DNA from: Magnetococcales bacterium DCbin2
GTDB lineage: Bacteria > Pseudomonadota > Magnetococcia > Magnetococcales > UBA8363
Length of the DNA: 64,000 nucleotides
NCBI GenBank assembly: GCA_002753615.1
Contig: PEAO01000002.1
Span: forward strand, 30,261-94,260
Direction of reading: 5' to 3'
A program made the position numbers and the translations under genes. The notes beneath the pieces are model-generated. The model was not told where the DNA came from. It searched no databases and was given only the letters and a program-made list of their open reading frames with translations. This document shows, in pieces, positions 9,001 to 51,576 of the stretch (its first letter is position 1; each line of letters begins with the position of its first letter).

Positions 9001-9190
9001 GGTATTGACAAAATTTAATACATCCTGACCTGCAACATACCCCGCCGTAATGGACACCTGGGCACCCGTCAGATTGGCACCATCTTCATTGGAGACCGTC
9101 AAACCCGCATCGGCGACGGTCGCCGCATTCCCTTCAACAAACGTCAACGCCCCCCCCGCCGTCACCGCCAGGGGGTCATAGACATTATAA
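1..9190 (-). repeat. ~4.08-kb higher-order repeat (about 1361 codons per unit) inside the giant gene, roughly 2.25 copies in the window
   Basis: 4494-4548 aligns to 8577-8631 (45/55 identical by eye, offset 4083). 4921-5080 aligns to 9004-9163. Antisense ORF peptides recur at the same offset (877-1221 vs ~4960-5300; 2368-2844 vs ~6450-6930). Similarity fades near 9190. Confidence 0.7.
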
Positions 9191-12100
9191 ACTGTAATGG
9201 CCACCGTCCCCGCAGCCGTCCCCCCGGTACTGTCGGTCACCCCGATAGCCAAACTGTCGGTGCCATTGAAATTCAAGCTCCCGCGATAGACCAACGCATT
9301 CGTCCCCGCCAGGGTGGCATTCAATTGTGCCAGAGTTCCCACCAGGGTGACCGCCCCAGTCCCATTGCCCGTCACACCCGCAGCCCCCACACCCCCGGCA
9401 ACAGCGGTATCCACTGTCACGGTGCCTTGGGTCACCGCAAGAGTCACTGTGGTATTGCCCGTGGCATCGATGTCGGTGAGTGACAGGCCCGGAATAGCAA
9501 TATTTTGCTCCTCAAGTCCCCAAACACCGTCGGCGGATGTATTCCAGGTTGCCCCGGTGATCGTGCCGTTCTTCGCACCAGCTTGGTCGTTGGCTACGGC
9601 CCCCACCCCCTCGTTCAAAGGCCAATACCCAACCAGACCCGCCTCGGAACCTGTCAGAGTCCGGCTCATGTTGGTCACAATGCTGGCGGACGATTGCGCG
9701 GTGTTCCAAATGCGCACATCGGCAAGACCACCCTTCATATCATTCAAAAGGTTGGACCTGGCTCCCAGGTAAAATCCGGTCTGTGCCTCGTGAACTCCGG
9801 GCTGGCTGACCTGTTTTTCCAACTGCCCGTTGACCATGACGCGGGTGTTGGTGCCATCGAAGGTAAACGCTAGGTGATACCATACCCCTGCGGTCCATGA
9901 AGTGGTGGTGGAGACTGCGGTATCGTAACTGGGACCGCCAATCTTGGTATAAATCCCGATTTCACCACCACCATTCTTGTTAAAACTGATGTGGGGGCGT
10001 CCGGTCGCACCATTACAAAAGAGCAGATCCTGGCGTGCGCTGGCACTGGTCAGGGTGACCGTCGGCTTCCACCACATCTCAATGGTGAATGCGGTCGTCG
10101 GAAAAACAAAGGTAGGGCTAGTAATCGTATCATTATTGCCATCAAAAACCAGTTGATCTCCCGTATCGATCACCACCTGCGGCGCGTCAATCACCTCGGT
10201 AACCGTCAAAGTCGCCGTATCGGTATTGGTGCTGAAAGCGGTGGCACCACCATAACTGGAAACATCGACTTTGTTTCCCGTCGTACCGCTCGTCTGATCC
10301 CAAGCCCGATAGGTCAAACCCACCGATTCTCCGTGCAATCCATCCGGGATATAGCGAATTTGATCGGTATCGCGCAACAACAGGGCGGAAGTTCCCGATA
10401 CCGCCCCCACCGCCGTCCAACCACTACCCGTATCATACTGCCAAGTTCCATAACCGCTGTTCAACGCAGTGATGGCAATCCCCTCCGAAGGGGTAGGCGA
10501 GGTATCGACATCGGTGACCCCAGCCCCGGCGAAAGAGGCGATGGTTTGCCCCGCGTTGGCGGTAGCATCTTCATCGATGGCCGTCAACACTGGAGCCGCT
10601 GCGGTGAGTGTCGGGGCGTCCTGGACCGGTTCCATGGTGATGGAAACCGTTGCCGCACTGGAGTCCAGAGCGGTGCTGTCGGTCACGGTAAAATTCCAGG
10701 TGGCGGTACCATCAAAATCGGCGGCTGGAACAAAAACGACCCGCCTTAACGCATCGCTTGCTGTCGTAATCTGGGCACCCACGGTCAACGGAGTGGTCAA
10801 ATCGCTGGGTACATATAATGTTCCCTCCGTAACGGCATCCGGTATAGAGGTCAGGGTCGCCTGGGTAATCGTATCACCATCCGCATCCGATCCCCCCAAT
10901 GAAACCGTAACACCCGCACTCCCTTCCGTAGGGTAGGTAATCCATTGTGGTTCCCCGGAAGGCGACAAGCTGCCGTTGATGCCATTTTTCGTATCGGTCG
11001 CCACGGTGTCGGCAGAATCGGTAACGCCATCGTCCAACGCATAATAACCGGTCAATCCCGCTTCAGCCCCAGTCAAGGATGTCGTCGTCATATCGGAACG
11101 CGCCCAAGAGAGTGCCGTCGCAGCCGTCGTACTCAAACCGGTGTTCCACAACCGTACCTCGGCAATGGAACCAGGAAAGGTAAAATTTCCCGTATCGGCA
11201 AAGGAACCGATGGAGACTAGGTTGTTGATCGTCGTCGTACTGGTAAAACTGATCCCCCCGGAAAAACTTTCAATATTTTGACCATCCAGGAAAATATCCC
11301 CGACTGGATTATTCCCAACCGTCCTCCAGGTCAAGACGGCGTGATGCCATTGCCCCGATCGGACCACAGCGATGGAGGTCGCATTGAACCCATCCATGCC
11401 ACCAAACAAGTTCCATGTCGGACCTGCGGCATCATTATTTCCGGTGGACTCAACATGCAGGTGAATCAGCTCACTGCCTGCAACCAAACTGCTGGTATTG
11501 GAAAGGATGAATCCATATTTTCCCACAGTCGTGGCATAGCTTTCGTTGATTTTGAACCATAGAGAAATGGTCCCTTCCGTTGGGTTCAGGGGATATTTGG
11601 CCTGGGTTTTATCATCCAGATTGACCCAATCGTTGACACCATCCAGCGTCAGACCATGGTCATTGACCCCTGGAACGGCGATGGGTGCTTCAAGGAGGTC
11701 GTAAAATGAGGAGAAGATCGTCGCATCAAAAGGGCTAGACACGTTCACATCCCCCTGGCGAACTTCCAAATTCCAGTCCCCACCCAAGGTGGCCGCACCC
11801 GTGGCATCGGAAGAGACCGCCACATCGGCACCCGTCAGATGGGACAACGCCTGGACAAAGGCTTCCCCCCGTGATCCGGCCCCCACGTCGCAACCGTAAA
11901 TCAGGATATCCCCATCCTGGGCCAAGGCCGAACCCCAGGTGGCCAAAACCTCCGATTGCCCCTCCAGAGTATCCAGAGTCAACCGTGAGCTACCCAGCAA
12001 AATTTCACCGGCACGCCCGTGGGAGACGATATGGAGGCTCTCAAGTTGCGTTCGCCCGGCCAACAGTTCGGTGATCTGGGCCACCCCATCGCGCTCTGGG

Positions 12101-12426
12101 TCCAGCAGCACCACCTCAGTCCCCTTGGCGACGGCAGCGAGCAACTGTTCCCAACCCGCCACACCGGTATCGATGACCATCAAAGAACCGCCAGAGACGG
12201 CAAGTTGATCCAAGACCGGCGACCAATCTCTATCGGCCCCGTCACCCTGGGCATCCGTATTGGCCACCGTATGGGGAGTGAGATCATCCAGCAGATCCTT
12301 GGTCGTCGCCACCAAGGCACCGTCAAACAGCACCCGTGGTTCCAAAGCCAGCATCATGGCATCCGAAACCACCACGCTGCCCAGAAGAGAGGATAACCGT
12401 TGCCCAGATTGGAGTGTTCGTTTCAT
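1..12426 (-). CDS. Giant repetitive adhesin-like surface protein, N-terminal 4142 codons (3' end lies beyond the left edge of the window)
   Basis: Not in the ORF track because it has no stop in the window. Reverse-complement translation from ATG 12426-12424 (AGGA 6 nt upstream) gives MKRTLQSGQRLSSLLGS. A DUF4347-like module follows (LMVIDTGVAGWEQLL, LHIVSHGRAGEILLG, ILIYGCDVGAG). Two LamG/concanavalin-like modules follow (rc of ~9700-10215 reads WYHLAFTFDGTNTRVMVNG...GGLADVRIWN). Many ~95-100 aa cadherin/Ig-like repeats follow (rc of 1-138 = LYIPNPNYNGRDQFTYTLNAGDRRIDVATVQVTVRPVNDQP). The phase is the same at 138, 10215 and 12426. The + strand ORFs here look like Gly/Arg/Ile-rich antisense shadows. 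Confidence 0.85.
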   Translation of the reverse strand, partial: MKRTLQSGQRLSSLLGSVVVSDAMMLALEPRVLFDGALVATTKDLLDDLTPHTVANTDAQGDGADRDWSPVLDQLAVSGGSLMVIDTGVAGWEQLLAAVAKGTEVVLLDPERDGVAQITELLAGRTQLESLHIVSHGRAGEILLGSSRLTLDTLEGQSEVLATWGSALAQDGDILIYGCDVGAGSRGEAFVQALSHLTGADVAVSSDATGAATLGGDWNLEVRQGDVNVSSPFDATIFSSFYDLLEAPIAVPGVNDHGLTLDGVNDWVNLDDKTQAKYPLNPTEGTISLWFKINESYATTVGKYGFILSNTSSLVAGSELIHLHVESTGNNDAAGPTWNLFGGMDGFNATSIAVVRSGQWHHAVLTWRTVGNNPVGDIFLDGQNIESFSGGISFTSTTTINNLVSIGSFADTGNFTFPGSIAEVRLWNTGLSTTAATALSWARSDMTTTSLTGAEAGLTGYYALDDGVTDSADTVATDTKNGINGSLSPSGEPQWITYPTEGSAGVTVSLGGSDADGDTITQATLTSIPDAVTEGTLYVPSDLTTPLTVGAQITTASDALRRVVFVPAADFDGTATWNFTVTDSTALDSSAATVSITMEPVQDAPTLTAAAPVLTAIDEDATANAGQTIASFAGAGVTDVDTSPTPSEGIAITALNSGYGTWQYDTGSGWTAVGAVSGTSALLLRDTDQIRYIPDGLHGESVGLTYRAWDQTSGTTGNKVDVSSYGGATAFSTNTDTATLTVTEVIDAPQVVIDTGDQLVFDGNNDTITSPTFVFPTTAFTIEMWWKPTVTLTSASARQDLLFCNGATGRPHISFNKNGGGEIGIYTKIGGPSYDTAVSTTTSWTAGVWYHLAFTFDGTNTRVMVNGQLEKQVSQPGVHEAQTGFYLGARSNLLNDMKGGLADVRIWNTAQSSASIVTNMSRTLTGSEAGLVGYWPLNEGVGAVANDQAGAKNGTITGATWNTSADGVWGLEEQNIAIPGLSLTDIDATGNTTVTLAVTQGTVTVDTAVAGGVGAAGVTGNGTGAVTLVGTLAQLNATLAGTNALVYRGSLNFNGTDSLAIGVTDSTGGTAAGTVAITVYNVYDPLAVTAGGALTFVEGNAATVADAGLTVSNEDGANLTGAQVSITAGYVAGQDVLNFVNTGAITGTWNAGTGVLSLTGTTTTANYLTALRSITYNNAGGDNPTAGVRTLAWRVTSALGTSPASPSTVTVQAVNDRPVMTASAALNYQENDAGTVMDATVTVADADNTTMQSATVTIANNFVVGEDRLVFVNQSGISGSWDGATGVLTLSGPATLTNYRNALRSVRYINDNTTAPQASTRQVQFSVYDGGLASVAVSVNVTVSAVNDPPVITLPAPGTVNEDQSLSLTGISVADVDIAGGNIQLALAVNHGIINLATTAGLSFIAGANGSSTMTISGTVAQVNNALNGMTYQPDGDYFGAESLAIVANDLGGSGSGGAQSTAASLGITVTAVQDAPVASIDAISAFEDIPKIITIATDLLANDTDVDGDLFTLVSFTNPSYGTLVDNGNGTLTYLSSSNYHGNDSFNYTVSDGHGNTSQSVVTMVVNDIPDSLQANSDTATTDEEVATSFWVLDNDRDPDFLPFGLNPARAVIGFTDPAHGQVTYQGNGQFIYTPDDDYAGADSFTYTLSVGDARTDVGTVNLTVNNINDMPMVATNTGAAVVEGASVTITPVFLQIADVEQAAAQVTLTLVNTPDYGSLTLNGVALVAGQTWTQDDMNQNRLVYTHGGSETLADNFSFTAADGVGGSLTETNFNLTVIPANDNPVLVKNGVTVAEGGDVTIGNGNLAATDVEDTAADLTYVLDVLPPQGSVLLNGVALGLGGQFTQVDVDSGNLVYRHNGSETLADSFSFHINDSQGGTLATTALPITITAANDAPVWSLPGAQSINEDVDTDITGISFSDADLGGGNASVTATVAHGILTLSSTVGLTFDAGGNGTATWTVSGTAANVNAALAHILYRGQANFNGADSLVLVVSDGGGSGAGGAKVAVANVSITVQPVNDNPIVGADGFVTAESTSVTLDIADDLMINDTDPDGGVLTFVSFTQPTHGTVTPVGATLVYAPVALYNGLDAFTYTIVNARGDSATATVSMTVAPVENALSPVDDAVSLLEDGSVTTGNLLANDRDPDFLPDGINPALSIIGFTPAAFGTVTYLGGGQFHYVPDADFTGIEVISYTLSAGDLRTGTGDITFTVTALNDDPTLPINTGLSLNEGDSVVLTNVMLLGQDLEQSATQVQFILATPPSHGTLSLSGTALAAGAIFSQDDIDNHRVVYTHDGGESVSDPFVLTVMDGVGGFLLNQTVAVTVAAVNDAPQLSVNTGLTVAEGGSGVITSAALAVTDAESGNNAIVYSLTAVGSHGQVRLNGTALSVGQTFTQADLAASKVDYLHDGGETLTDEFRFTVSDSQGGSSGETPFVITVTPVNDPLVVTAGGALVFTEGDATLVASSSMTVSDPDGTHLIGAQVAIVGGYSTGEDVLGIVNTASILGAWDAGTGILTLSGVASMADYQTALASVTYNNAAGDNPTAGMRTLAWQGIDTSGTGPASQSLITVVAVNDRPGLAGGTAFTYSENDAATLIDPNLTLSDADSTTLQGATVVISSNYVAAEDRLVFTNQLGISGSWDGATGVMALSGSASVADYQTALRSVRYVNDNGDTPQSSLRQVGFSVHDGSLSSTVVSSNMSVVAVNDPPVVTVSGPRVVGEDLMLILAGINVTDADLGAGDIQLSLGVNHGIVDLGTTVGLHFSLGADGSATMIFSGSLAAINDALNGMFYEPDADYVGADSFTIVANDLGGSGSGGAKSAAAAVAITVNPVQDTPVANADAILAQEDVTKIITITGDLLANDGDVDGDLLTFVSFTNPSQGVLVNNGNGTLSYLSNNDYHGVDAFTYTIGDGHGNTDVGTVTVVVNPIPDSLVAGNDSASTGEDTAVTLSVLDNDLDPDFLPNGLNPALNVIGFSNPAHGQVVHLGNGQLVYTPDPNYFGTDTLTYTLNAGDARIDVGTVTITVTPQNDAPMMAAPASGPVLEGGTLVITAAMLPVSDPEQSASQVTVTLVNAPVHGRLERDGTILSPGQTWTQEMMQQGRLLYRHDGSETSADSFSFTATDGVGGTMLETNFGVTVTAVNDNPVLTQGAVSVIEGGQGVIDGTILLATDTEGGAASLGYVLDALPVHGYLSFHGMTLGLGGGVFTQADVNAGGLVYVHDGSETTGDSFSFHVTDPQGGATPVTVQGITVIPGNDAPVWSLPGGWSGNEDQNLDITGVQISDSDLGVGVIHVSLSVSHGTVTLPVTTALTSSAGANGSGSWTFSGSIASVNAALNHIVYRGNANFNGSDQLVLVADDGGLSGVGGAKVAIGSVGITVQATADNPNAGLDAFSTAEDIALTLDIASDILANDFDPDGLSFSLESVTQSAHGTVTVSGSNLIYTPAAHYNGLDSFTYTIINSNGGRASSTVSVVVNPLADQLRPGDDQVTVVEDGMVVTDNLLANDRDPDYLPDGRNPALSIIGFSAAAHGSLTWNGDGRFTYVPEADFDGYDHFSYTLSAGDQRMDTVWVVVTVTAANDNPSLVTNTGLDLEEGGQVTLTSAMLKALDLEQGPSQIQFIVASVPTHGVLTLHGVSLSRGSLFSQDDIDNHRVVYSHGGDESTNDSFLVSITDDAGGYLLSQPIFIRVTPVNDAPRLLTNAGLTVAEGGRAALSTAGLSVTDAESHSGEIFYDVSTIPVHGQLRLNGVALDSGQRFSQADLMAGRVEYFHDGSDTVTDGFTFTVSDGQGGRLAQTPFTITITPVNEPPVLTSPGWFTVLEDESTPLRGIWVSDSDIGSGMILVRLSVEHGRLSVPELDGLQFQNGRNHTASMTLVGPVDIVNRALMGLHYQGVWDYNGYDRLALLISDQGNDGTVSAATTGKTVVLEVTPVEDPPLPGMDAIMSPPDHPFVADEPVVIDVGPSLLANDYDGDATGLTISGFTQPQFGSLVDQGNGRFVYTPNANFKGYDQFTYTVTDRTGKYAFTTVVIINPVMDGLDAGDDTLVAHEDEPGQTINLLRNDRDPDFKGGTNPKLTIIAFTQGAHGRVVYVGNQSFLYIPNPNYNGRDQFTYTLNAGDRRIDVATVQVTVRPVNDQPNIAVN

Positions 12427-12625
12427 GGTCGTCCTAATCGGTGAAAAGGTTTTCGTCCATGAAGCCAACCGGCTCCTAAGCCACGAAAAACAGACGCGCC
12501 ATAAAAACCTGTACGCAACAAGCGTACCTTATATTTTATTATTTAATATCAGTATATTATCATGAATCAGTCAGAAATTTTTCCAACTGAATGTGCGGAG
12601 ATGTAAAAAATTATTGACATGTTCG

Positions 12626-12683
12626 CGGTCACATGGCGGGGATGGTGGTGACAAACGCCGGTTGGCTCTCACGGGAGCGATAG
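12626..12683. repeat. 58-bp direct repeat, left copy (orphan copy of the 3' end of the SPOR gene)
   Basis: cggtcacatggcggggatggtggtgaCaaacgccggttggctctcacgggagcgatag matches 13441-13498 at 57/58 positions (C/T difference at 12652 vs 13467). The copies are spaced 815 bp apart. Confidence 0.9.
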
Positions 12684-12694
12684 AAAACTTCGTC

Positions 12695-12722
12695 TTGACA
12701 TAGGACTTATCAGTCCTATAAT
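12695..12722 (+). promoter_or_regulatory. Sigma70-like promoter with embedded palindromic operator upstream of the toxin-antitoxin cassette
   Basis: TTGACA is at 12695-12700 and TATAAT at 12717-12722, with a 16-nt spacer. The spacer is filled by the perfect palindrome TAGGACT-tatc-AGTCCTA (12701-12718), as expected for antitoxin autoregulation. Confidence 0.6.
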
Positions 12723-12730
12723 GATTTTCC

Positions 12731-13097
12731 ATGGAGATTGTATTCTATCGCGAAAAAGATGGCTCATTTCCAGTTCAAGATTTCCTTGATGGGCTTGAAA
12801 ATCAGGGGGCAGCGCGTATCATGCAGTATCTTACCCATCTTGCCGATTCTGGTGGAAGGGCAACAGGTTCAGCCTATTAAGAAACTCCACGGATACCCCC
12901 TGGAAGAGATCAGAGTCAAACAGCCTCGCACTCTCCATCGTGTGATTATCCACGTTCAATTGAGAGATAAAATCTTGGTTCTGCATGGATTCACAAAAGT
13001 TGAGGGACAAGAAACGCCAAAAAAAGAGCTTGAGCAAGCCCTTGCACGCTATCAAGCGATGACTGCCACCCATGGTGAATCGAAACGTCATGAATGA
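12731..13097 (+). pseudogene. Gp49/HigB-like (RelE/ParE superfamily) toxin, disrupted by a 1-nt frameshift
   Basis: ATG 12731 gives MEIVFYREKDGSFPVQDFLDGLENQGAARIMQYLTHLADSGG, then runs into TAA at 12878-12880. The family-like sequence continues in the next frame (track ORF 12738..13097): VQPIKKLHGYPLEEIRVKQPRTLHRVIIHVQLRDKILVLHGFTKVEGQETPKKELEQALARYQ. Removing one G from GGG 12858-12860 restores a single ORF. Confidence 0.75.
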
Positions 13098-17292: not shown

Positions 17293-18501
17293 ATGCTCTT
17301 TACCGACAGGTATCTGAAAAGCCTAAAACCAAAAGAAAAACGCTACGAAGTATTAGAGAGCCTTGGTTTCGGCGTCCGAGTCACACCCCATGGGGGTGTG
17401 ACCTTCATCTACGTATATCAATTTGAGGGCCGTAATCGACGAATGACACTCGGAACATATCCAAGCCTAACCCTGTCTGAGGCCAGAAAGAAACATGCAG
17501 AGGCCAGAGAACTTTTTTTGAAAGGTATTGACCCCGGCGCGATTACGCAAACCGCAAAAGAAGAACGCAAGGCATCTCCAACCGTCGCCGAATTGGCAGA
17601 GGAATACATGGAGAAATGGGCCAAAGCGCGGAAAAAATCATGGAAAGAAGATGAACGGATGTTAAATCACGACGTTATTTCTGCCTGGGGCAGACGCAAA
17701 GCCAAGGACATTACAAGAAGGGACGTTATAATTCTTCTTGACCAGATTGTTGAGAGAGGTTCCCCAATAGCCGCAAATCGCACTCTATGTGTCGTCCGCA
17801 AGATGTTTAACTTCGCCCTGTCGAGGGACATCATACAGACCACCCCTTGTGCAGCCATAGCGAGGCCAGCAGAAGAAAACCGGAGAGATCGGATATTTAC
17901 CACAGACGAGACGAGGATTTTTTGGGATCGGCTTGAAATTGTACGTATGGATATTGGAAGCAAACTCGCGTTAAAACTCCAACTCTTTACGGCTCAACGA
18001 TGCGGGGAAGTGAGTGGTGCCCCCTGGACCGAGTTCGACTTGGTGGAAGGATGGTGGACGATTCCCTCAGAACGGGCAAAAAATAAAATGCCACACCGGG
18101 TGCCATTGTCCAAAATGACCAAGGACTTGCTGGCCGAAATCAAAAAAACTTCTGGTGGTGATTCTCCTTGGTTGTTTCCATCCCCACGAGGAGGAAAGCC
18201 TGTCGGCGAAACTGCCCTGGCGCATGCAGTCAAAAAAAATCTGTCGGTGTTCGGTATTCCACCATTCACGCCCCACGACCTACGGCGCACCGCTGCCAGC
18301 CACATGACATCAATGGGAATACCACGCCTAGTGGTTGCCAAAATTCTTAATCATGCCGAAAGCGGAGTAACAGCAGTCTATGATCGACACAGTTACGACC
18401 AAGAAAAACGGCGAGCCATGGACGCTTGGTCAAAACGGTTACATGAAATCGTGAATGGTAGTACCGAAGAGAATGTGGTGGCGTTCGCGGTTAAATCCTA
18501 A
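17293..18501 (+). CDS. int: Tyrosine integrase (P4-like, DUF4102 arm-binding N-terminus)
   Basis: The N-terminus LKSLKPKEKRYEVLESLGFGVRVTPHGGVTFIYVY is DUF4102-like. Catalytic-region motifs are TAQRCGEV, HDLRRTAASHM and LNHAESGVTAVYDRH. Confidence 0.95.
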   Translation: MLFTDRYLKSLKPKEKRYEVLESLGFGVRVTPHGGVTFIYVYQFEGRNRRMTLGTYPSLTLSEARKKHAEARELFLKGIDPGAITQTAKEERKASPTVAELAEEYMEKWAKARKKSWKEDERMLNHDVISAWGRRKAKDITRRDVIILLDQIVERGSPIAANRTLCVVRKMFNFALSRDIIQTTPCAAIARPAEENRRDRIFTTDETRIFWDRLEIVRMDIGSKLALKLQLFTAQRCGEVSGAPWTEFDLVEGWWTIPSERAKNKMPHRVPLSKMTKDLLAEIKKTSGGDSPWLFPSPRGGKPVGETALAHAVKKNLSVFGIPPFTPHDLRRTAASHMTSMGIPRLVVAKILNHAESGVTAVYDRHSYDQEKRRAMDAWSKRLHEIVNGSTEENVVAFAVKS

Positions 18502-35885: not shown

Positions 35886-36539
35886 TTATTGAGCGAAGTA
35901 GGTGGTGAACGAGCCGGGTGAACCCTGTTGGTTTGGGCCAACCATTCTCAACCTTTGGGTGGTTATCACCAATCCCATTTTGCTTTTGGCGATGGAGAGA
36001 AACCCGCGAATCGTGTGTCCCTGCCACCCCGTCATTTCAGCGATTTGGGCGGCGGTTGCTCCTTCGGGTCGCTTCATCATCTCGATGACCTTCGCCTTCT
36101 TGGTGTCGTCCCTGACCTTCTTTGGCTTGGTAAAGGACTGTTCTGCGGCTTTGACTTCATCTTCAAAGTCGATGGTAGCGTTGGGAACCTCGTCAGTTTC
36201 CATTGCCGTGGTCGTTTGCGGCTCGTTGGCCTGACCCGGCCAGTCCCAGACCATCCCCTGTTGGGATGCAAATGCCTCTGCATCTTCTTTGGCAATTTGT
36301 GATGATTCGACGCGAGTCATGTGTTGGCCTCGTGCAGACTTGAAGTCAGGGTCAATCACCATCAAGACGTGCATCGCTATCTTGTCCTCGTTGTCAATCA
36401 GTCCCTTGGCTCGGAGGGATGCAAGAACCTTGTTGATTGCTCCGCCCTTGATGTGGGGTGGCATCGGGTAGATAGACCCATCTTCGCGGGTGGTTGCTGC
36501 TACGATGATGGTCTCTTGGGTCTTGGTCAGGTCGTTCAT
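35886..36539 (-). CDS. DUF3489-domain protein (winged-helix-like), reverse-oriented
   Basis: The C-terminus KAKVIEMMKRPEGATAAQIAEMTGWQGHTIRGFLSIAKSKMGLVI is the DUF3489 signature. GGGAG RBS before ATG 36539. Confidence 0.75.
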   Translation of the reverse strand: MNDLTKTQETIIVAATTREDGSIYPMPPHIKGGAINKVLASLRAKGLIDNEDKIAMHVLMVIDPDFKSARGQHMTRVESSQIAKEDAEAFASQQGMVWDWPGQANEPQTTTAMETDEVPNATIDFEDEVKAAEQSFTKPKKVRDDTKKAKVIEMMKRPEGATAAQIAEMTGWQGHTIRGFLSIAKSKMGLVITTQRLRMVGPNQQGSPGSFTTYFAQ

Positions 36540-36679
36540 GGTTTGCGCTCCCGTTGGTGTTTGTTTCTGATGGCCCCATGAAGCCATCATTAGAGCCTCA
36601 CCATCAAGTGTAAAATGAGAATAACTTCATTGTTTTTAAAGATTTATAATTGGGTTCGCACTCGTTTATGGACGGGTTC

Positions 36680-37032: not shown

Positions 37033-38421
37033 ATGAGTTTGCAGATTGAGGACTGGCCATTGGACCGGTTGATTCCATATGCCAAAAATCCAAGACGCAA
37101 CGATGAAGTGGTGGACCGCATGGTGGGTGCCATCCGGGAGTTCGGCTTCCGCATCCCCATCGTCGCCAAGAGCGATGGACTGGTTGTGGACGGTCACCTG
37201 CGTCTCAAGGCCGCCCGGCGGTTGAATCTGGAAACGGTGCCGGTGGTCCTGGCCGACGACCTCACCGAAGCCCAAGTCAATGCGTTTCGACTGCTGGCCA
37301 ATCAGTCCGCCAATTGGGCCGAGTGGGACGAAGAATTGTTGAAAAACTTACTGGGTGAATTGCGTGACCTCGATTTCGACATGGAGATGACCGGTTTCGA
37401 TATGGAGGAGATTGACCGTTTGTTGTTGGACATGGGAAACGGGACCGAGGGCAATGCTGGTGAAGGTGGCCCCACGGAGGAAGAATCCATCCCTGAACCG
37501 CCAGCCAAGCCAGTCACCCGCACCGGTGATCTCTGGTGCCTGGGCGATCACCGGTTGCTTTGCGGTAGCAGCATCGTCGCAGATGACGTGATCCGGCTGA
37601 TGAAAGGCGAACGGGCGGTACTTTTTGCGACCGATCCGCCATATCTTGTGGATTACGACGGCACCAACCACCCGCCCACCAAGACGATCAATGAGAGGCA
37701 GGAAAAAGCAAAGCTGGCCGCTGAGGGAAAGGTGAAGAAAGGATGGTTGGATGGCAACAAGGACTGGTCTGGCACCTACGGAGTAACATGGGATGACGCC
37801 AACCAGGGACCGGAACTCTACGAGGGGTTCATCAAGAACGCCATTGACCACGCCATTGGCACCCATGCGGCATGGTACTGTTGGCACGCATCCAAACGGC
37901 AAGCAATGTTGGAGGCGGTGTGGGAAAAGTTTGGGGCATTTGTCCACCAGCAGATTATCTGGAACAAGAACTCCCCCGTTCTGACACGGACGCACTATCT
38001 CTGGAAGCACGAACCCTGTTTCTACGGTTGGATTCGTGGCAACAGGCCTGAAAAGATCGAAGGTGCAGAACCAGTTTATTCGGTGTGGGACATCAAGGGA
38101 CTCACCGGGGATGCACGCCCTGACCATCCGACGCCGAAGCCTCTGGATTGTTTCGCCATTCCTATGCGCCAGCATGTGGAACTTGGTGGGCTGTGCTACG
38201 AACCGTTTTCTGGGTCAGGATCGCAGATTATGGCAGGGGAAACGACGGGCCGGAAAGTTTACGCCATGGAGATCAGCCCGGTCTATGTGGATGTGGCGGT
38301 AAAGCGGTTCATCCATGCCACCGGCAAGATCGTCTACCTGGACGGCTCCGGTGGGAAAACGTTTGAGGATGTGGCGGCGGAACGTGGAGTGGGTCTGGCA
38401 GACTCGGGGAACACAGATTGA
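37033..38421 (+). CDS. ParB-like nuclease domain fused to an N6/N4 DNA methyltransferase
   Basis: The N-terminus LIPYAKNPRRNDEVVDRMVGAIREFGFRIPIV...DGHLRLKAARRL is ParB-N-like. The methylase part carries CGSS...LFATDPPY and a C-terminal YEPFSGSGS SAM-binding motif. Confidence 0.9.
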   Translation: MSLQIEDWPLDRLIPYAKNPRRNDEVVDRMVGAIREFGFRIPIVAKSDGLVVDGHLRLKAARRLNLETVPVVLADDLTEAQVNAFRLLANQSANWAEWDEELLKNLLGELRDLDFDMEMTGFDMEEIDRLLLDMGNGTEGNAGEGGPTEEESIPEPPAKPVTRTGDLWCLGDHRLLCGSSIVADDVIRLMKGERAVLFATDPPYLVDYDGTNHPPTKTINERQEKAKLAAEGKVKKGWLDGNKDWSGTYGVTWDDANQGPELYEGFIKNAIDHAIGTHAAWYCWHASKRQAMLEAVWEKFGAFVHQQIIWNKNSPVLTRTHYLWKHEPCFYGWIRGNRPEKIEGAEPVYSVWDIKGLTGDARPDHPTPKPLDCFAIPMRQHVELGGLCYEPFSGSGSQIMAGETTGRKVYAMEISPVYVDVAVKRFIHATGKIVYLDGSGGKTFEDVAAERGVGLADSGNTD

Positions 38422-43242: not shown

Positions 43243-45279
43243 ATGGCCAAAGTGATTGACCTGCCCATGCAGGTCCGAATGGCGAGTTTTGCCCCCGATA
43301 CGATGAACGCCGAGGCAAGGACCGTGAACGTGGTCTGGTCAACAGGTGCAGCAGTTCGACGAACCGACTGGATGAGAGACAAGGTTTACGACGAAACGCT
43401 CTCGTTAGCACCGGAACACGTCCACCTGGAAGCCCTTAACGCTGGCGCACCGCTTTTAGCGAACCATGATCGGAGTAACTTGGAAAGCATTATTGGTGTT
43501 GTCGAAAGGGCATGGATTGCTAACGGGCCATTGGGTTTTGAGGGCCATGCCACGGTGCGGTTTTCAACTCGTGAAGATGTGAATGCGATCCTCAATGATG
43601 TGAAGGATGGGATCATCCGCAACATCTCGGTCGGTTATACGATTGCCAGGGTTGAAGTAACTGAGGAGCGCGGCAAAATCCCACAGTGGAAGGCGGTGGA
43701 TTGGACGCCGAAAGAAATATCGATTGTCCCGGTCGGTGCCGACATGGGTGCGGGGTTTCGCGCAGTTGATGGACAAACAATTTACCAATGCAGTCTTGAA
43801 AATAGAGGAACAGTCATGAGCAAAACGATAGACGAAGGACAGTTGCCGGGGGATCAGGTTCCAGCAGAATCCAACCGAAGCGAACCCGTAGTGGCCCCAC
43901 CAGTCGCCGACGCGCAAACACGTTCAACGGCCACTGAAATGACAGAGCCAACTTTGACTGTCAGAACTGAACCAGGGAAAATTGATGTCGAAAAGATGAT
44001 CCAGAAGGCTCAATCCGATGAAAGATCACGCACTGCGGCGATCTATGACACTCAGGTCAAGTTGGGGTTAGACCGTGGTTTGGCCGACAAATTGGTGAGT
44101 TCCGGCGCGGCAGTCGATGTTGCCAGGGCTGCATTGATTGACGTTGCGGCACAAAGGTCTGCGGCAACGATGGTCACGCACGGCGTTGTGGCCACTGCTG
44201 GTGGTCAAGATGAAAAAATGACCCGCAATGCCGCCGTGGAAAACGCCCTGCTGCATCGGTTTTCCCCTACCACCCACAAGATTACGGATGCTGGGAGAGA
44301 ATGGTCGGGGATGACCCTTTTGGAAATGTCCAGATCATTTTTGGCTGCTGAAAACGTCAGCTTAAAGGGAATGAGCCGCGATCAGGTCGCCACCAGGGCA
44401 TTGCACACTGGATCTGATTTTCCGATCTTGCTGGCCAACGTCGCACAGAAAACCTTGCGAAGTGCGTATGAAGTCGCGCAGAGGACGTTTCAATCTTTCT
44501 GCCGCCAAGTCACCGCCAGCGATTTTAAGTCCGTATCGCGGGTACAATTGGGTGAAGCCCCTAGCCTTGAGAAGGTCGCGGAAGGTGGGGAATACAAGCG
44601 TGGATCGTTGGGTGAAACTGCGGAATCCTACCGCATTGAAACCTTCGGCAAGATCATTTCCATTTCGCGTCAGGTGATCATCAATGATGACCTCCAAGCT
44701 TTCACCCGAATCCCCCAATTGTTCGGTGCCGCTGCGGCGAATTTGGAAAATGAGATTGTTTGGGGCATCTTCACCGCCAATCCGAAGATGGCCGACAATA
44801 CTGCGTTATTTCATGCCAACCATAAAAACCTCCTGGCAACCGGGACAGGATTGTCCGTTGCGTCGCTTGGAGTGTGTCGGAAAAACATGGGCCTTCAAAC
44901 AGGGATCGACGGCAAAACCATCCTCAACATTCGCCCCTCCTTCTTGATTGTCCCTGCCGCATTGGAAGTGGTAGCAGAACAACTCTTGGCTCAAAATCTG
45001 GCACCAGCGAAACCCGATGACGTGGTTCCGACCTCCATGCGATCCCTATCCGTGATCACCGAGCCACGCCTGGACACGAACAGCACGACAGCATGGTATT
45101 TGGCGGCATCGCCAGCGGCTTTGGACACCATTGAGTATGCGTATCTTGAAGGCCAGCAAGGCGTCTACATCGAGACCAAAGTTGGGTTTGATGTGGATGG
45201 GATTGAAATCAAAGCCCGGTTGGATTTTGGTGCCAAAGCCATTGATTGGCGTGGTTTCCACAAAAACCCCGGCGCATAA
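43243..45279 (+). CDS. Prohead protease (S78/HK97-type) - scaffold linker - major capsid protein fusion
   Basis: The N-terminus reads PLLANHDRSNLESIIGVV...IRNISVGY, with the protease His/Ser context. An Ala/Glu-rich middle follows. The C-terminal ~330 aa are MCP-like (EGGEYKRGSLGETAESYRIETFGKIISISRQVIINDDLQAF...). Confidence 0.8.
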   Translation: MAKVIDLPMQVRMASFAPDTMNAEARTVNVVWSTGAAVRRTDWMRDKVYDETLSLAPEHVHLEALNAGAPLLANHDRSNLESIIGVVERAWIANGPLGFEGHATVRFSTREDVNAILNDVKDGIIRNISVGYTIARVEVTEERGKIPQWKAVDWTPKEISIVPVGADMGAGFRAVDGQTIYQCSLENRGTVMSKTIDEGQLPGDQVPAESNRSEPVVAPPVADAQTRSTATEMTEPTLTVRTEPGKIDVEKMIQKAQSDERSRTAAIYDTQVKLGLDRGLADKLVSSGAAVDVARAALIDVAAQRSAATMVTHGVVATAGGQDEKMTRNAAVENALLHRFSPTTHKITDAGREWSGMTLLEMSRSFLAAENVSLKGMSRDQVATRALHTGSDFPILLANVAQKTLRSAYEVAQRTFQSFCRQVTASDFKSVSRVQLGEAPSLEKVAEGGEYKRGSLGETAESYRIETFGKIISISRQVIINDDLQAFTRIPQLFGAAAANLENEIVWGIFTANPKMADNTALFHANHKNLLATGTGLSVASLGVCRKNMGLQTGIDGKTILNIRPSFLIVPAALEVVAEQLLAQNLAPAKPDDVVPTSMRSLSVITEPRLDTNSTTAWYLAASPAALDTIEYAYLEGQQGVYIETKVGFDVDGIEIKARLDFGAKAIDWRGFHKNPGA

Positions 45280-46938: not shown

Positions 46939-48774
46939 ATGGGGAGTCCCATGCCTTTTCGTATCAATGGTGGTTTGGCTTTTGGCAAAGACACTATCAG
47001 GTTCGACGTTTTGGATACAGCCCCGGCCACTGGCGATGGTAAGTCGGACGCCATGGGTCTCGGCTCCATTGTCATTGCCCGTGACAGTGGAAAGATGTAC
47101 CGCAAAACCACCCTGGGTGCTGGTTTTGACAAATGGTCCGTAATGGCAGATGCCACTGACAAGGTGGGTGCTGTTCATTGGAAACACCCGGTCCGGGTTG
47201 TGGATACGCAAGTCAAAACCCAGGCTCAGTTTGAAACCTTTATGAATCAGTTCGGCATGCTTGGTGGTGAAACTGTCCCTTCAAATATCGGGGATACCGA
47301 TTGGGAATCCACCCAAAAGAATGCGTCCGTACTTTTGCCGAATCTCACTGGCGGCTTCAATAGGGGTCGCTACATCGCAACTGCTGGCTACGCGATGATT
47401 GACATCTCTGATGGCGGTCAGAGCCATTATCTGGTGGCCACCGAGCAAGGATCTGCCGGAAATGACATCACCCTGGCCATGATCAACAATGCCGACAACA
47501 ATCCGACAACCTCGGCCACCTTCATCGGCAACAACATCGTCGTGACCTTGGCCAACGACGGCACGAATCCCATTGGCGACATGCGGGACGTGGTTTCCGC
47601 AATCGAAGCAGTAGATACCACGAACCGGGTGGTCGTTCGCCATGTTTGGCAGATGGAGGCCAATGCTACCCTTGGGGTGACTCCATACGCACTGGCTCAG
47701 ACGAATTTGTCTGGTGGTGGTGCAGGGTCTACCAATGCTGTGAATGCTTCCGGTCTGATTGGGACCGTGGCTGTTGATCAATTCACGTTGTCGGCACAAT
47801 CAGGCGGCTCTGGTTGGAATGCAACGACCGTTGTGTTGACTCACAACTCATTCAATGGTGCGTCCACCACCACGTCTGTCTACAACTTTGCTACCAACAC
47901 CCTTACGGTCAGCTTGAAAAACAACGGTTCGGCCATCACTTCGACCATTCGCAACGTGGCAGATTCTTTTGAGAATCTGGTTCCAGAAGGGCGGGATGAG
48001 CAAGGTCGCATGTTCTATGATCGCATGTTTGGCATCAGCACCGATGGTATTTCTCTCGATGCTGTTATCCAAGCAGAATATTCGGGAACTCCGATGAGTG
48101 GTGGTGTTGATGGTGATTACCACCTGATGCCGGGTTGGGGAATCCACTCGGTGGAAATTGGCTGGCGTCCTGATCAGGGTGACACGTTCTATGTTGAGCG
48201 TGGTCAAGATTGGGGTTCCTTGTGGATCTACAATGACGAGAATCAATTCGTCAAACAGGGTGCTGCTGATGCGACAGAGGCCAATTTCATTTCTGCCTAC
48301 ATTGGCAAGCTTTCGGTCGGCAACTCCATGCCTTCCTACTCCAGCACCAAAGTGGTGACTGGCGGCACCAGTCTGACCGATGCCATCGGCGCATTGGATG
48401 CTCGCCTTGGGGACAATCTGAAAGAGAGCAAATCTGCGGCTGTGACTGCGGCCACCACCGTTGATTCCGTGATCATGGAACAAAATCTGGCCGTGAACTG
48501 GATGGTCCATGTTCGTGAAGTGGCCAATCCTCAAAACATCTACACCGTGAACGTATTTGCATCCCACAATGCCAATACCGGATTGGCTGCGACCCGTGCC
48601 GACTATAACGAGGCAGGGATTTTGCAGTTTGGCAAAAACATTGGTGGTCTGGACATCGGTGTTGATGTTGAAACCTCTGGTGCGCTCAGTGCGCGTCTCA
48701 TGCGTTTGCGGATCGCTTCCACTGATTCCGTTTGTGTTACCGTCCAGAAAAACCCGTTGCGCCGGGTTGTATAA
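46939..48774 (+). CDS. Large virion-associated protein of unknown function (611 aa)
   Basis: AAGGAG RBS. The protein is Asn/Thr/Gly/Ala-rich with internal repeats (NNIVVTLANDGTNPIGDMRDVVSAIE vs NTLTVSLKNNGSAITSTIRNVADSFE). Confidence 0.6.
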   Translation: MGSPMPFRINGGLAFGKDTIRFDVLDTAPATGDGKSDAMGLGSIVIARDSGKMYRKTTLGAGFDKWSVMADATDKVGAVHWKHPVRVVDTQVKTQAQFETFMNQFGMLGGETVPSNIGDTDWESTQKNASVLLPNLTGGFNRGRYIATAGYAMIDISDGGQSHYLVATEQGSAGNDITLAMINNADNNPTTSATFIGNNIVVTLANDGTNPIGDMRDVVSAIEAVDTTNRVVVRHVWQMEANATLGVTPYALAQTNLSGGGAGSTNAVNASGLIGTVAVDQFTLSAQSGGSGWNATTVVLTHNSFNGASTTTSVYNFATNTLTVSLKNNGSAITSTIRNVADSFENLVPEGRDEQGRMFYDRMFGISTDGISLDAVIQAEYSGTPMSGGVDGDYHLMPGWGIHSVEIGWRPDQGDTFYVERGQDWGSLWIYNDENQFVKQGAADATEANFISAYIGKLSVGNSMPSYSSTKVVTGGTSLTDAIGALDARLGDNLKESKSAAVTAATTVDSVIMEQNLAVNWMVHVREVANPQNIYTVNVFASHNANTGLAATRADYNEAGILQFGKNIGGLDIGVDVETSGALSARLMRLRIASTDSVCVTVQKNPLRRVV

Positions 48775-48800
48775 CCCTTTCCGAGTTCTGATGATATTTC

Positions 48801-48836
48801 ATACGGGGGCTGTAATAGCCCCCCGTATTCTTTCTT
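48801..48836 (+). terminator. Intrinsic terminator after the 611-aa gene
   Basis: ATACGGGGGCT-gtaat-AGCCCCCCGTAT (one bulge) is followed by TCTTTCTT. Confidence 0.65.
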
Positions 48837-49093
48837 GGAATTAAAATGTTGGCAGATCAATCCAAAGAACCAGCCAGCGCGTTCTTCCCGCAACGTTTCC
48901 TCTGAAACTTCGAGAATAAACATGAATAAAGCATCATCGCATGACGTGGCCAGGATTATGATTGCCATGTATCGGAAACAGCACCGGAAAGGAGCCATCT
49001 ACCGCCATGGCAAACTGTTCTTTTGCGAAGGGGCGGGTCTGTTCCAAACGATCAGGTTATTCCTTGGCGCACTGATGCTGCCCAGAGATGCCG

Positions 49094-50188
49094 TTATTCT
49101 GCCGGAGGTGGCGGAATCAACGCCAACAGGTCCTTTTCTCCAAATTTTTCACGATGATGAAAAACTTGTTCCGGGAACTGCCTGGCCAGCATTGGAAAAT
49201 TGGAGTCTTCAGGAAACTCGGGACAGATTGCATGCACCTGCAACTTTGGCCGAAGTGTGAGACTGGTTGCAATCAAGGAATTGATGAGTTCGTCGCGATA
49301 GGCAAAACCGATGGAAATCAGGCGTTTGTGAACAGCAAGCCGGTTGAAGAAATGTCGGTGCAGATCGGAGAAGGGATGATCCACCGGGATGCCTTTGTAT
49401 CCGGGATAGATCAATGCCGGGCCGTTCAAGTCTTCGGGCATGCGTGGTGCGCCGGTGATGCAAACACCATCATGGAAATCCCAGGTCAACGAACCGTGAA
49501 GTTTGAAATACCCAACCTCATGGGCAGCGGGCCGGTTTGCGTCCAGGTTACGGGTGTGAACGAGACTGGAGCCACGGCATTCAAAACCATTGTAGATTTC
49601 GTGAATTCCAAGGTCTTCCCAATGTTTTTTTAATCCTGACTCCCGGTTAACGTCCTCGAAAACGGATTCCAGCACTAAATCGTAATTGGTCGTAAAGATC
49701 GTCAGGCTGTCCTGTCTTTGCAACAAAGGGGAAAACAGGCCGGAAAAGAGTTCAAATGCTTTTTGCCGGTCGTGTTTGAGGCTGTCCCACAGGAACCGTT
49801 TTAATTCCCGATCCAGGACGATTGCCATGCTGTAAAGATCGCCCAGGAAATATTTGGCAGAGGCTGAATAATTTCTTTTGCTATCAAACCCGGATTTCAT
49901 TTCTGGAGAAGTACTGTCCCCCATTTTCTTGCGATACGTCTCCTCAAATAGCGTTGCCGTATTGATATAGGTCTTATGATTTTTGATTAAATTTTCCAGA
50001 ACGAAAAAAATCCGTTCGATGTCCAGGCGGCTTTTGTCGTTGTCGGCCAACTGTGCGAGTAGGACATCGAACAGGAGCCGGGTGTCGGGAGATGGATTGA
50101 AGCTGGTCATGAATCCTTGCGTGGTAGATAGACCCAGGGGAACACAGGCTCCCGCTCCGATGAGAAACATATCCATGACAGGAATCAT
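49094..50188 (-). CDS. Stand-alone SIR2-like (SIR2_2 family) protein, reverse-oriented moron
   Basis: FLIGAGACVPLGL (GAG NAD-binding loop), IFTTNYDLVLE, YFKLHGSLTW and LISIGFAYRDELIN. The domain fills the whole 364-aa protein. Confidence 0.8.
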   Translation of the reverse strand: MIPVMDMFLIGAGACVPLGLSTTQGFMTSFNPSPDTRLLFDVLLAQLADNDKSRLDIERIFFVLENLIKNHKTYINTATLFEETYRKKMGDSTSPEMKSGFDSKRNYSASAKYFLGDLYSMAIVLDRELKRFLWDSLKHDRQKAFELFSGLFSPLLQRQDSLTIFTTNYDLVLESVFEDVNRESGLKKHWEDLGIHEIYNGFECRGSSLVHTRNLDANRPAAHEVGYFKLHGSLTWDFHDGVCITGAPRMPEDLNGPALIYPGYKGIPVDHPFSDLHRHFFNRLAVHKRLISIGFAYRDELINSLIATSLTLRPKLQVHAICPEFPEDSNFPMLARQFPEQVFHHREKFGEKDLLALIPPPPAE

Positions 50189-50247
50189 CGAATGAATGAA
50201 ATAAATGTTGATGACAGGTCAGGCATCATACCAGAGGTTACGTGATT

Positions 50248-50664
50248 ATGAAGGATTATCTCGCCGCCGAGCCGTTGATTATTGCCCGGCTTGAAGATCA
50301 GATCGCCAACATTACCGTTAAATCAACCTGGGGGATGCCCAAGATCCTTGAAACGATCAACCTTCCTCCGGCGGTTTTGGTGTTTTTGGAAAAAGACAAA
50401 TCGGGGGAGGTCCATCTGAGCAACCATATGGTTGAGCAAACCTGGCTTTGCCTGGTTGTGGTCCAGGATGCCAAGAACGATGCTGGACCGTTGATCAGCC
50501 AGGTCATCAAGGCCATGCATGGGTGGCGGCCCGAAGACAGAAAATTTTCCACATTCAAACGTGTGCAATCGAGTTTTGCACACGAATATTCGCCCACGGG
50601 AGTGCTTTATTTTCCGTTGGCGTTCACAACCGAGTTTGTATTCAACAGCCAAACAAAGGATTAA
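50248..50664 (+). CDS. Tail terminator/completion candidate (Gp37/DUF1834-like)
   Basis: The call rests on position immediately upstream of the major tail protein. AGAGG RBS before ATG 50248 (the track starts at GTG 50242). Confidence 0.45.
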   Translation: MKDYLAAEPLIIARLEDQIANITVKSTWGMPKILETINLPPAVLVFLEKDKSGEVHLSNHMVEQTWLCLVVVQDAKNDAGPLISQVIKAMHGWRPEDRKFSTFKRVQSSFAHEYSPTGVLYFPLAFTTEFVFNSQTKD

Positions 50665-50667
50665 GAC

Positions 50668-51576
50668 ATGGCATCCAGTCAGTGGAGTCTTGTTGGTGAA
50701 GGAGAAATTTTCATTGGCCCGCGTTCCGGTGGTCCATTGCGGGCGGTCGGACAGGTCAAGGAGTTCAAGATTGACGTATCTGAAGAAACCAAGGAGATGA
50801 AGAACTACCAGGGCGGCGGCGGGCTGGCCGATCAGGTGAGTTGGATCTCCAAGATTGACGCCTCTCTCAATTTTTTGTCGTTGTCGGCCAAGAACCTTGC
50901 CATGGCGATGCGAGGTGAAATCACGGCTTTGGTGGCGGGAGCCGTTACCAAAGCACACACCGCCTATGCCGGTGGATTTTTGCCCTTGGAAGGGATCGGG
51001 CCGAGAGCGGTGACGGTCACCGTCGATCCTCCGGCCTGGAGCGACACCACGGCCAAGGTCATCGGCGATATCGTCAAGCCAACAGCAGGCACCCATTTTT
51101 ACAAGGCCACGGCGGCTGGAAACACGGGTGGGACGGAACCGGCATCATGGCCCACCGACGGATCTACTGTAACGGATGGCACAGTCACATGGATGGATAT
51201 GGGGACCATGCTTCTTGTCGCAGGTAACTTTGAAACCAAGAGTGCCGGGATCTTTATCCCCGAAGATTCCGCAAAAATCGCAGTCACCGGCACTCCGGTC
51301 GAAGTGAGCTATACCAAGACGGCGGGGACCATCATCCAAGCTCTGGTCAACGCCGCAGGAGAATACCGGGTGTTTTTTTCCGGGACCAATCTTGCCCGTG
51401 AAGGACAACCGTTAGCTGTGGATCTTTATCGGGTCAAATTTTCCCCGCCCAAGGATCTGTCGTTCATTGGTGACGATTTTGCCGGACTGACCCTCACCGG
51501 ATCTGTCCTTAAGGACGATACCCGGTCAGGATTCAAGATCAGTTCTTTTTGTGCAATCAAGATGGCGGAGGAATAA
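50668..51576 (+). CDS. Major tail (tube) protein with an inserted decoration-like domain
   Basis: The call rests on position (before the chaperone and tape measure). The N-terminal pattern is GEGEIFIGP...VGQVKEFKIDVSEETKEM...LSAKNLAMAMRG. The insert is FYKATAAGNTGGTEPASWPTDGSTVTDGTVTW. Confidence 0.65.
   Translation: MASSQWSLVGEGEIFIGPRSGGPLRAVGQVKEFKIDVSEETKEMKNYQGGGGLADQVSWISKIDASLNFLSLSAKNLAMAMRGEITALVAGAVTKAHTAYAGGFLPLEGIGPRAVTVTVDPPAWSDTTAKVIGDIVKPTAGTHFYKATAAGNTGGTEPASWPTDGSTVTDGTVTWMDMGTMLLVAGNFETKSAGIFIPEDSAKIAVTGTPVEVSYTKTAGTIIQALVNAAGEYRVFFSGTNLAREGQPLAVDLYRVKFSPPKDLSFIGDDFAGLTLTGSVLKDDTRSGFKISSFCAIKMAEE

Follow-up and report, generated by a model that had tools for sequence, protein, structure and literature searches.

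SIR2 NADases are among the commonest anti-phage effectors, and each characterised system raises the question of how a lethal enzyme is restrained and then released. We asked this question of a SIR2 gene that lies in reverse orientation in the late operon of a prophage from the Magnetococcales bacterium DCbin2. The gene is located on a stretch of 64,000 nucleotides (assembly GCA_002753615.1, contig PEAO01000002.1, positions 30,261 to 94,260 of the forward strand), hereafter called the window, whose numbering we use unless another locus is named. A sequence-only reading of this DNA had described SIR2 as a stand-alone gene, leaving its trigger and restraint unexplained, and had found no convincing open reading frame (ORF) in the ~260 bp downstream. 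The second claim was refuted by a conserved 112-aa small ORF (sORF) at 48922..49260 (+), to which the called public protein P0083 is 100% identical. The first did not hold either, as this conserved small gene is encoded on the other strand, runs into the 3' end of SIR2 and is co-inherited with it. The arrangement of the two genes suggests that this type of anti-phage effector may be subject to a new mode of control.

The SIR2_2-family gene at 49094..50188 (-) is predicted to encode an NAD+-consuming effector, on the combined evidence of the ORF and its motifs, Pfam, PADLOC, an AlphaFold2 (AF2) model and Foldseek. Counted from the ATG at 50188 the ORF is 364 aa long, and direct reading of the sequence confirmed this length and all four SIR2 motifs that had been quoted from it. 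The true start is probably M5 (ATG 50176), which would give 360 aa, because the homologues and the NCBI record P0001 (360 aa) begin with MD[ML]FLIGAG. P0001, which is named 'SIR2 family protein' and comes from a Magnetococcales/'Nitrospirae' metagenome-assembled genome (MAG), is 100% identical to the window protein. Another database protein, P0002 (338 aa) from locus L001, is a shortened annotation: read from an upstream ATG, the L001 ORF at 9935-11017 gives 360 aa and includes the GAG motif described below. Pfam SIR2_2 (PF13289) matched residues 163-321 with 32.3 bits against a gathering cut-off of 24.5 (E=1.3e-7) and was the sole Pfam domain. Many PADLOC SIR2 models matched as well, with the Argonaute-associated model Aga_SIR2 on top (E=1e-19). 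The NCBIfam equivalog NF042942, 'SIR2 family anti-phage-associated protein', scored 42.3 bits, far under its cut-off of 500.

To define the family, we aligned 28 homologues (~28 proteins of 330-385 aa were recovered). Residues N168, D170 and H231 were invariant in 28/28 family members. The first two are the predicted catalytic Asn168 and Asp170 of the TTNYD motif (residues 166-170; 49679..49693, minus strand), and the third is the predicted catalytic histidine of KLHGS (codon at 49496..49498, minus strand); both motifs were identified by alignment and by direct reading. The alignment also placed the NAD-binding glycine motif of the Rossmann fold, GAG, at residues 11-13 (50150..50158, minus strand), where it is nearly invariant over the 28 sequences and invariant within the close clade. 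Further invariant positions are specific to the family: D56, E58, YPGYK, H277 and GFxxRD.

The AF2 model of the SIR2 protein (predicted local distance difference test, pLDDT, 84.9; predicted template modelling score 0.84) consists of a single SIR2 domain with a helical insertion. Together with the single Pfam match, it bears out the earlier observation that the SIR2 domain fills the whole protein. When the model was compared with the PDB by Foldseek, the top matches were SIR2 subunits of E. coli and other SIR2-HerA complexes (8uae_B; E=5e-15, template modelling score ~0.6, probability 1.0), and classical sirtuins reached only E~1e-3. A sequence-profile search of the PDB likewise ranked 8yhx and 8j4u, both SIR2 of SIR2-HerA, as best (E~1e-23). 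Taken together with the Pfam and PADLOC matches, we conclude that the window protein has a SIR2/ThsA-type NAD-binding fold, and that its nearest known relatives are SIR2-HerA effectors and not ThsA. The earlier comparison with ThsA therefore stands for the fold and falls for the closest kinship. NADase activity is predicted from these similarities, and we consider it likely that the protein is a defence-type effector; defence is also the most plausible role of the gene as a whole.

The similarity to SIR2-HerA (Nezha/GAO_19) raised the question of whether the locus belongs to a known system. The window SIR2 is nearest to that system by sequence and fold, is of similar size, shares the catalytic motifs, and SIR2-HerA also occurs on phages and mobile elements. 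However, the partner in SIR2-HerA is a co-directional ATPase of ~580 aa, whereas here it is a convergent, overlapping protein of ~110 aa with no known fold, and the window SIR2 falls in a separate HerA-less clade. An iterated HerA profile gave no match anywhere in the 64 kb of the window or at any of the close-clade loci; as a positive control, it detected 98 HerA genes next to SIR2 at more distant loci taken from collections of viruses, genomes and metagenomes. Thoeris ThsA, DSR1-DSR2 and the short pAgo system SPARSA (SIR2-APAZ-pAgo) share with the window protein a SIR2_2-type domain and NAD+ depletion as the expected output. For Thoeris, ThsA models gave only weak matches of ~35 residues (E about 0.005-0.01), Pfam found SIR2_2 only with no SLOG, and no ThsB/TIR gene occurs among the neighbours, which are phage structural genes, although the window was not scanned exhaustively for TIR. 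DSR1/DSR2 were rejected because the protein has 360-364 aa and a single SIR2 domain, without the sensor extension of >1000 aa. SPARSA was rejected despite Aga_SIR2 being the best PADLOC model, as the protein has no extra domain such as APAZ; there is no pAgo among the flanking genes (the 611-aa orphan, the sORF and the tail genes), and no pAgo profile was run on the whole window. These results agree with the statement in the sequence-only reading that the described partners and extensions are lacking, for HerA by profile over 64 kb and for TIR, pAgo, STAND, SLOG and DSR as judged from the protein and its neighbours. We conclude that the locus lacks what defines SIR2-HerA, Thoeris, DSR and SPARSA, yet encodes the same kind of effector.

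The sORF first surfaced when we compared all ORFs around SIR2 homologues from ten contexts, where the window ORF matched the L001 region. No conventional partner gene was found in this all-against-all comparison of neighbouring ORFs in the ten contexts, only a DUF4145-like ORF in two loci. The latter lies near SIR2 in two sister-clade loci, at 8215-8832 (+) in L008 and 5845-6516 (+) in L011 (33% identity over 132 aa), and the L011 copy overlaps a gene that was called on the complementary strand. The DNA 3' of the SIR2 stop is conserved between the window and L001, whose contexts are otherwise unrelated, and the conservation stops at a shared opposite-strand ATG. All close-clade loci that we examined have a homologous ORF in the same place and on the same strand, namely L001/L045, L044, L046/L207, L004/L013, L204 and L206, as does L011 from the sister clade. 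The sORF thus recurs in eight or nine SIR2 lineages at 30-61% identity, five of them in clearly different phage contexts. In the window the convergent overlap of sORF and SIR2 spans 167 nt (49094..49260), and in the other lineages it spans 104-260 nt; within it, codon position 3 of SIR2 is codon position 2 of the sORF.

The sORF proteins are ~90-125 aa long over the lineages and share the motif ..IF....GF...RL.L....LP.E., in which R45, L53 and P54 are invariant or nearly so. The alignments define a conserved core at residues 30-56, GKLFFCEGAGLFQTIRLFLGALMLPRD (49009..49089, plus strand), with a basic helix ahead of it. Sequence varies in the C-terminal half, where a model too poor to use (pLDDT 43) predicts disorder. 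Further public members are P0084-P0089 and P0091. Gene callers had called the sORF in at least four records and left it uncalled in the other records examined. An exhaustive HMMER search of 1.84 billion representatives recovered only six true members, all of 106-122 aa, and Pfam, PHROGs and PADLOC returned no significant family. With these results, we conclude that the sORF protein family is previously undescribed.

An ORF that overlaps a conserved gene could be conserved for the sake of that gene, and we therefore weighed the possibility that SIR2 is a solitary, single-gene defence and the sORF a by-product, either a mirror of SIR2 or a frame kept open for translation of the operon. Several features are those of a coding gene. 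The sORF has an ATG with a Shine-Dalgarno sequence in 5/6 lineages (GAGGAGG in L004), and substitutions outside the overlap follow codon positions 3>1>2, with counts of 33/26/18 between the window and L001. Between L004 and L013, 3/3 sORF differences are synonymous. Within the overlap, most pairs have the most substitutions at sORF codon position 2, consistent with constraint from SIR2. In addition, a profile built from six lineages recovered the held-out L206 (E=1e-27) and L204 (3e-6) and had no match in about 190 other SIR2 loci.

Part of the sORF mirrors conserved SIR2 codons, and for this reason we performed two masking controls, both leaving out one lineage at a time. In the first, the whole SIR2 coding sequence was masked, so that only non-overlapping segments of 34-57 aa remained. 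Significance was reached for L206, L046 and L001 only, and the window sORF (E=1.1) did not reach it, as would be expected if SIR2 were solitary. In the second, which covered eight lineages, we masked only the conserved part of SIR2, because the C-terminal tails of SIR2 are unalignable between lineages. The held-out sORF then ranked first after the training set in 8/8 lineages and was significant in 7/8: the window (1.3e-7), L004 (2e-9), L206 (2.5e-13), L001 (4e-6), L046 (1e-5), L044 (2e-4) and L011 (2e-3), with L204 (1.1) not significant and the best background hits at E~0.6-2. One non-significant match of the sORF profile (E=3.2), in the very distant SIR2 locus L144 at 4206-4319 (-), lies on the opposite strand just 3' of SIR2 and is probably due to chance.

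Two further observations could speak for a solitary SIR2: the sister clade consists of apparently solitary SIR2 genes, and in some lineages the whole antisense strand of SIR2 is stop-free, so that openness alone could be selected. However, what is conserved are amino-acid motifs and not mere openness, and they lie outside SIR2 or under its non-conserved tails. The conservation also ends at the shared ATG, with a Shine-Dalgarno sequence upstream, and the substitutions are of a coding type. A solitary SIR2 with the sORF as by-product is therefore, in our judgement, very improbable, and we are highly confident that the sORF is a real gene that is functionally linked to SIR2.

The stop-free antisense strand is an observation in its own right. 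Opposite almost the entire SIR2 gene, the codon-aligned antisense frame lacks stops in several lineages and forms ORFs of 316-514 aa, at L046 89-1633 (-), L004 7953-9026 (-), L206 1143-2093 (-) and L011 6959-7912 (-); the window has an antisense ORF of only 181 aa (49088-49633, plus strand). We judged this openness by comparing codon usage, as a synonymous shuffle is an invalid null for a codon-aligned frame. The codons TTA, CTA and TCA were far rarer in SIR2 than in the neighbouring genes in L004 (p=5e-4), L011 (p=0.002) and L046 (p=0.006); the window, L001 and L044 did not show this effect. One possibility is that the operon strand is kept translatable across the SIR2 insertion. In L207 (493-2377), SIR2 itself is missing from the source gene calls, which instead contain the sORF and an ORF of 513 aa on the antisense strand of SIR2; overlaps of 4-11 nt link these two to a 74-aa gene and a Mu-transposase-like gene.

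In a neighbour-joining tree of 163 SIR2 sequences, the sORF-bearing SIR2s formed one clade. The sister clade and several other clades have neither HerA nor, with the exception of L011, an sORF, and the HerA-linked SIR2s group apart. Where both flanks could be read, SIR2 lies reversed among co-directional phage genes with the sORF on the operon strand. This embedded layout was found in the window, L001, L004, L013, L011, L204 and L206, and the L046/L207 lineage agrees with it by the L207 gene calls, although SIR2 itself is not called there. In L011, L206 and L207 the sORF begins within or directly next to the operon gene ahead of it.

The surrounding phages differ from one lineage to another. 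L001 is a Mu-like Magnetococcales prophage in which SIR2 (59-61% identical) lies between a tail fibre gene and pRha. In L004 and L013 the gene lies between early genes and a Mu-type transposase, and the L207 gene calls look alike; in L011 it lies between a Cro/Ner-like gene and a helix-turn-helix/replication block, and in L204 and L206 minus-strand genes flank it on both sides. The cassette occupies at least four different positions in different phages, and the sORF-bearing contexts comprise a siphovirus late operon, Mu-like early regions, a site behind a tail fibre gene and a Cro/CI region. Sister-clade SIR2s without an sORF came from a conjugative element, islands bounded by integrases, and a defence island. 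That last setting is a Bacteroidia island (L007 1-8083) that holds a canonical SIR2-HerA pair and, 5 kb away beside an integrase, a solitary sister-clade SIR2, and thus two SIR2 systems of different type in one island. Judging from the tree and the contexts, SIR2 and the sORF are co-inherited and form a two-gene cassette that travels between unrelated temperate phages. The sequence-only reading had also considered that SIR2 might be an orphan remnant, to be recognised by a partner that co-occurs with it elsewhere and is absent here; a co-occurring partner was indeed found, and it is present in the window as well, where the two genes form the same cassette.

The SIR2 protein could instead serve the phage, acting as an ADP-ribosyltransferase or deacylase on host or phage macromolecules or as an RNA-repair sirtuin. 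Viral sirtuins in RNA-repair or ADP-ribosylation contexts have been described (PMC9503650), and sequence cannot tell which type of activity a SIR2 domain has. However, the closest relatives of the window protein are defence SIR2s and not the RNA-repair clade, its homologues occur in defence islands and integrative elements, and 2H, Nudix, ligase and Macro genes were not among the neighbours in the window and the homologue loci. The reverse orientation also suggests expression outside the lytic programme. We consider a phage-serving role to have little probability.

We then considered where the cassette sits in the window. The late operon is siphovirus-like and runs from TerL through portal, a protease-major capsid protein fusion, head closure protein (Hc1), two small genes and a 611-aa orphan to the reversed SIR2, followed by a 140-aa phrog_209 protein, the major tail protein, a chaperone and a 1605-aa tape measure protein. 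Upstream are the hallmarks of a prophage, namely a tyrosine integrase (17293-18501), a KilA-N protein and a CI/S24 repressor, and the left flank is host-like, with higher GC and genes for SPOR and metallophosphoesterase proteins. The annotations of the late operon, the integrase and CI/S24 are compatible with the description of SIR2 as a moron in reverse orientation. The 611-aa gene (46939..48774, plus strand) lies between head-closure and tail genes and has no Pfam or PHROG family. It is followed by an intrinsic-terminator-like hairpin, GGGGGCTGTAATAGCCCCC, with a T-rich tail (48805..48836, plus strand; hairpin part 48805-48823), 85 nt ahead of the sORF start. The hairpin noted earlier is therefore present, although the region has no more terminator-like sites than expected from shuffling and this site rests on its position only.

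On the other side, the SIR2 ATG (50188) is separated by 53 bp from the GTG (50242) of the next plus-strand gene, the divergent tail gene, which agrees with the short gap that had been described. A sigma-70-like promoter candidate for SIR2, TTCATA-16-TATGAT with TG upstream, lies at 50225..50252 (-) and is a consensus match only. The downstream late-operon genes, for the 140-aa phrog_209 protein and the major tail protein, were placed by annotation at 50242..51576 (+). For transcription of the head genes to reach them, it must cross the sORF and then SIR2 in antisense. An Rfam scan of 48500-50500 found no known RNAs. Searches of GenBank phages with DNA and protein found no match, and IMG/VR held no relatives of the 611-aa gene or the major tail protein. 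The sole related phage, on IMG/VR contig L208, shares only the head module and has an unrelated tail module. No relative of this prophage with the SIR2 site unoccupied turned up in the collections searched.

With these results, we propose a model for how the cassette may work. SIR2 would be made in the lysogen from its own promoter-like site and would act as an NAD+-depleting defence of the abortive-infection type against superinfecting phages. Expression of the sORF would coincide with the lytic programme of the resident prophage, a timing to which the place of the sORF on the operon strand, abutting or overlapping the preceding operon gene in several lineages, points. The same lytic transcription would cross SIR2 in antisense and lower its expression, and the small protein would neutralise SIR2, so that a lytic-cycle off-switch or self-immunity keeps the prophage from aborting its own replication. 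We regard this full chain, a SIR2 that protects the lysogen and is disarmed by the sORF and antisense transcription when the prophage turns lytic, as possible, though somewhat short of an even call. That the sORF represents a new kind of self-immunity factor, in which a phage-operon-encoded anti-SIR2 protein is combined with obligatory antisense transcription, is a more tentative proposal.

Parts of this model have counterparts in known systems. Convergent transcripts that overlap at their 3' ends occur in type I toxin-antitoxin systems of Bacillus prophage regions, such as bsrG/SR4 and txpA/RatA. As here, these are prophage-borne, and the regulator transcript overlaps the 3' end of the toxic gene. 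However, their antitoxins are non-coding RNAs and their toxins small membrane peptides, whereas the window has a 360-aa enzyme and an overlap that is conserved as protein-coding, as known from its sequence. The self-immunity that we propose would be functionally analogous to BstA/aba, a prophage defence with cognate self-immunity (PMC8585504). In both, a defence gene of a prophage is closely linked to an element whose proposed role is to protect the carrier phage during its own lytic cycle (PMC8585504). They differ in that BstA is not a SIR2 and aba is a DNA element within bstA, whereas the candidate here is a small gene together with antisense transcription, and its part in self-immunity is deduced. 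A survey of viral NAD+/ADP-ribose systems describes sirtuin-Macro toxin-antitoxin pairs, SIR2-HerA pairs and an RNA-repair sirtuin clade in phages (PMC9503650). The sirtuin-Macro modules of actinophages are likewise two-gene sirtuin modules of phages, with a predicted role in superinfection conflict (PMC9503650), whereas the partner here has no Macro or other known domain and is convergent and overlapping. That survey lists nothing resembling a SIR2 with a small convergent overlapping partner (PMC9503650), and full-text literature searches found no report of one.

The same observations could be explained by a toxin-antitoxin-like abortive module, in which SIR2 is the toxin and the sORF, with a promoter of its own, keeps the lysogen supplied with a labile antitoxin. 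The 3' overlap would add type-I-like antisense control; when an infecting phage stops host transcription, the antitoxin would decay and SIR2 would deplete NAD+. Such a module would fit the tight linkage and co-inheritance of the pair, the sORF C-terminal half, which is poorly conserved and predicted to be disordered as in many labile antitoxins, and the terminator ahead of the window sORF, which could mean an independent transcript; sirtuin-Macro toxin-antitoxin pairs, moreover, occur in phages (PMC9503650). It fits less well with the link between the sORF and the phage operon gene ahead of it in L011, L206 and L207, or with no sORF promoter having been found in the window. In addition, sister-clade SIR2s lack such a partner, which argues that this SIR2 family does not generally need an antitoxin, and a convergent layout is atypical of type II toxin-antitoxin pairs. 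We consider a toxin-antitoxin-like module unlikely.

The small protein could also be an activator or sensor in place of HerA, switching on an autoinhibited SIR2 oligomer upon a phage cue. The nearest solved SIR2 relatives need a partner for allosteric activation, as SaSir2 requires HerA (PMC11514289), and the sORF clade has lost HerA and has another partner at the 3' end. Against activation, the sORF lies on the operon strand of the resident phage, so that the prophage would abort its own lytic cycle. A conserved domain of ~60 aa with no detectable fold or ATPase would be a poor replacement for a hexameric translocase, and the sister-clade SIR2s manage without HerA and without the sORF. We consider such an activator improbable, and retain the off-switch as the preferred model.

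Several observations nevertheless weigh against the off-switch and the cassette on which it depends. The window sORF has a weak ribosome-binding site (GAGA), the terminator-like hairpin lies upstream of it and no plus-strand promoter was found; because of the hairpin and the lack of a promoter, its expression in the window needs read-through or an unrecognised promoter. With all of SIR2 masked, as described above, its profile match is not significant. The structure model mentioned above, built from 4 sequences, is unusable and gives no support for SIR2 binding. In the closest solved relatives HerA activates SIR2 and does not inhibit it (PMC11514289), so that the sORF could also activate, and SIR2 domains can be ADP-ribosyltransferases (PMC9503650). 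PHROG annotation of the neighbours of L044, L204 and L206 gave no hits, and because these neighbours are unclassifiable the phage-only correlation rests on five lineages. Finally, the clade of SIR2 with an sORF is rare and comes from uncultured organisms (MAGs), and a metagenome scan for close-clade loci gave, among the matches listed, only relatives of at most 31% identity.

These findings bear on how defence systems are found and controlled. In the branch studied here, which belongs to the SIR2-HerA lineage but lacks HerA, SIR2 is accompanied by a small partner that had escaped notice, overlaps it on the opposite strand and belongs to no known family. Standard gene callers usually miss the sORF, so that neighbourhood-based defence discovery would class such loci as single-gene systems or ignore them; antisense-overlapping small genes may hide regulators of defence systems more generally. 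If the off-switch is tied to the lytic programme of the carrier, it would give a concrete answer to how prophages survive their own abortive-infection cargo, and the sORF protein would be a natural protein inhibitor of a SIR2 NADase. A lysogen could then harbour an NAD+-depleting suicide enzyme of its temperate phage, which the phage would inactivate on entering the lytic cycle. The backwards-embedded, 3'-overlapping layout would also be portable, because cargo and off-switch would be wired into whichever operon receives the cassette.

We also noted features of the window that lie outside the cassette. One 678-aa ORF (43243-45279, plus strand; phrog_4523) encodes the head maturation protease and the major capsid protein as a fusion, and it has a 60%-identity relative in L208. 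A second reverse-oriented prophage gene encodes a DUF3489 protein (35886-36590, minus strand) just upstream of a fusion of ParB-N and N6_N4 DNA methylase (37033-38421), and it may be a second moron. In the host flank of higher GC (1-13000), several plus-strand ORFs of 230-370 aa are without a Pfam match, and GC skew is negative throughout.

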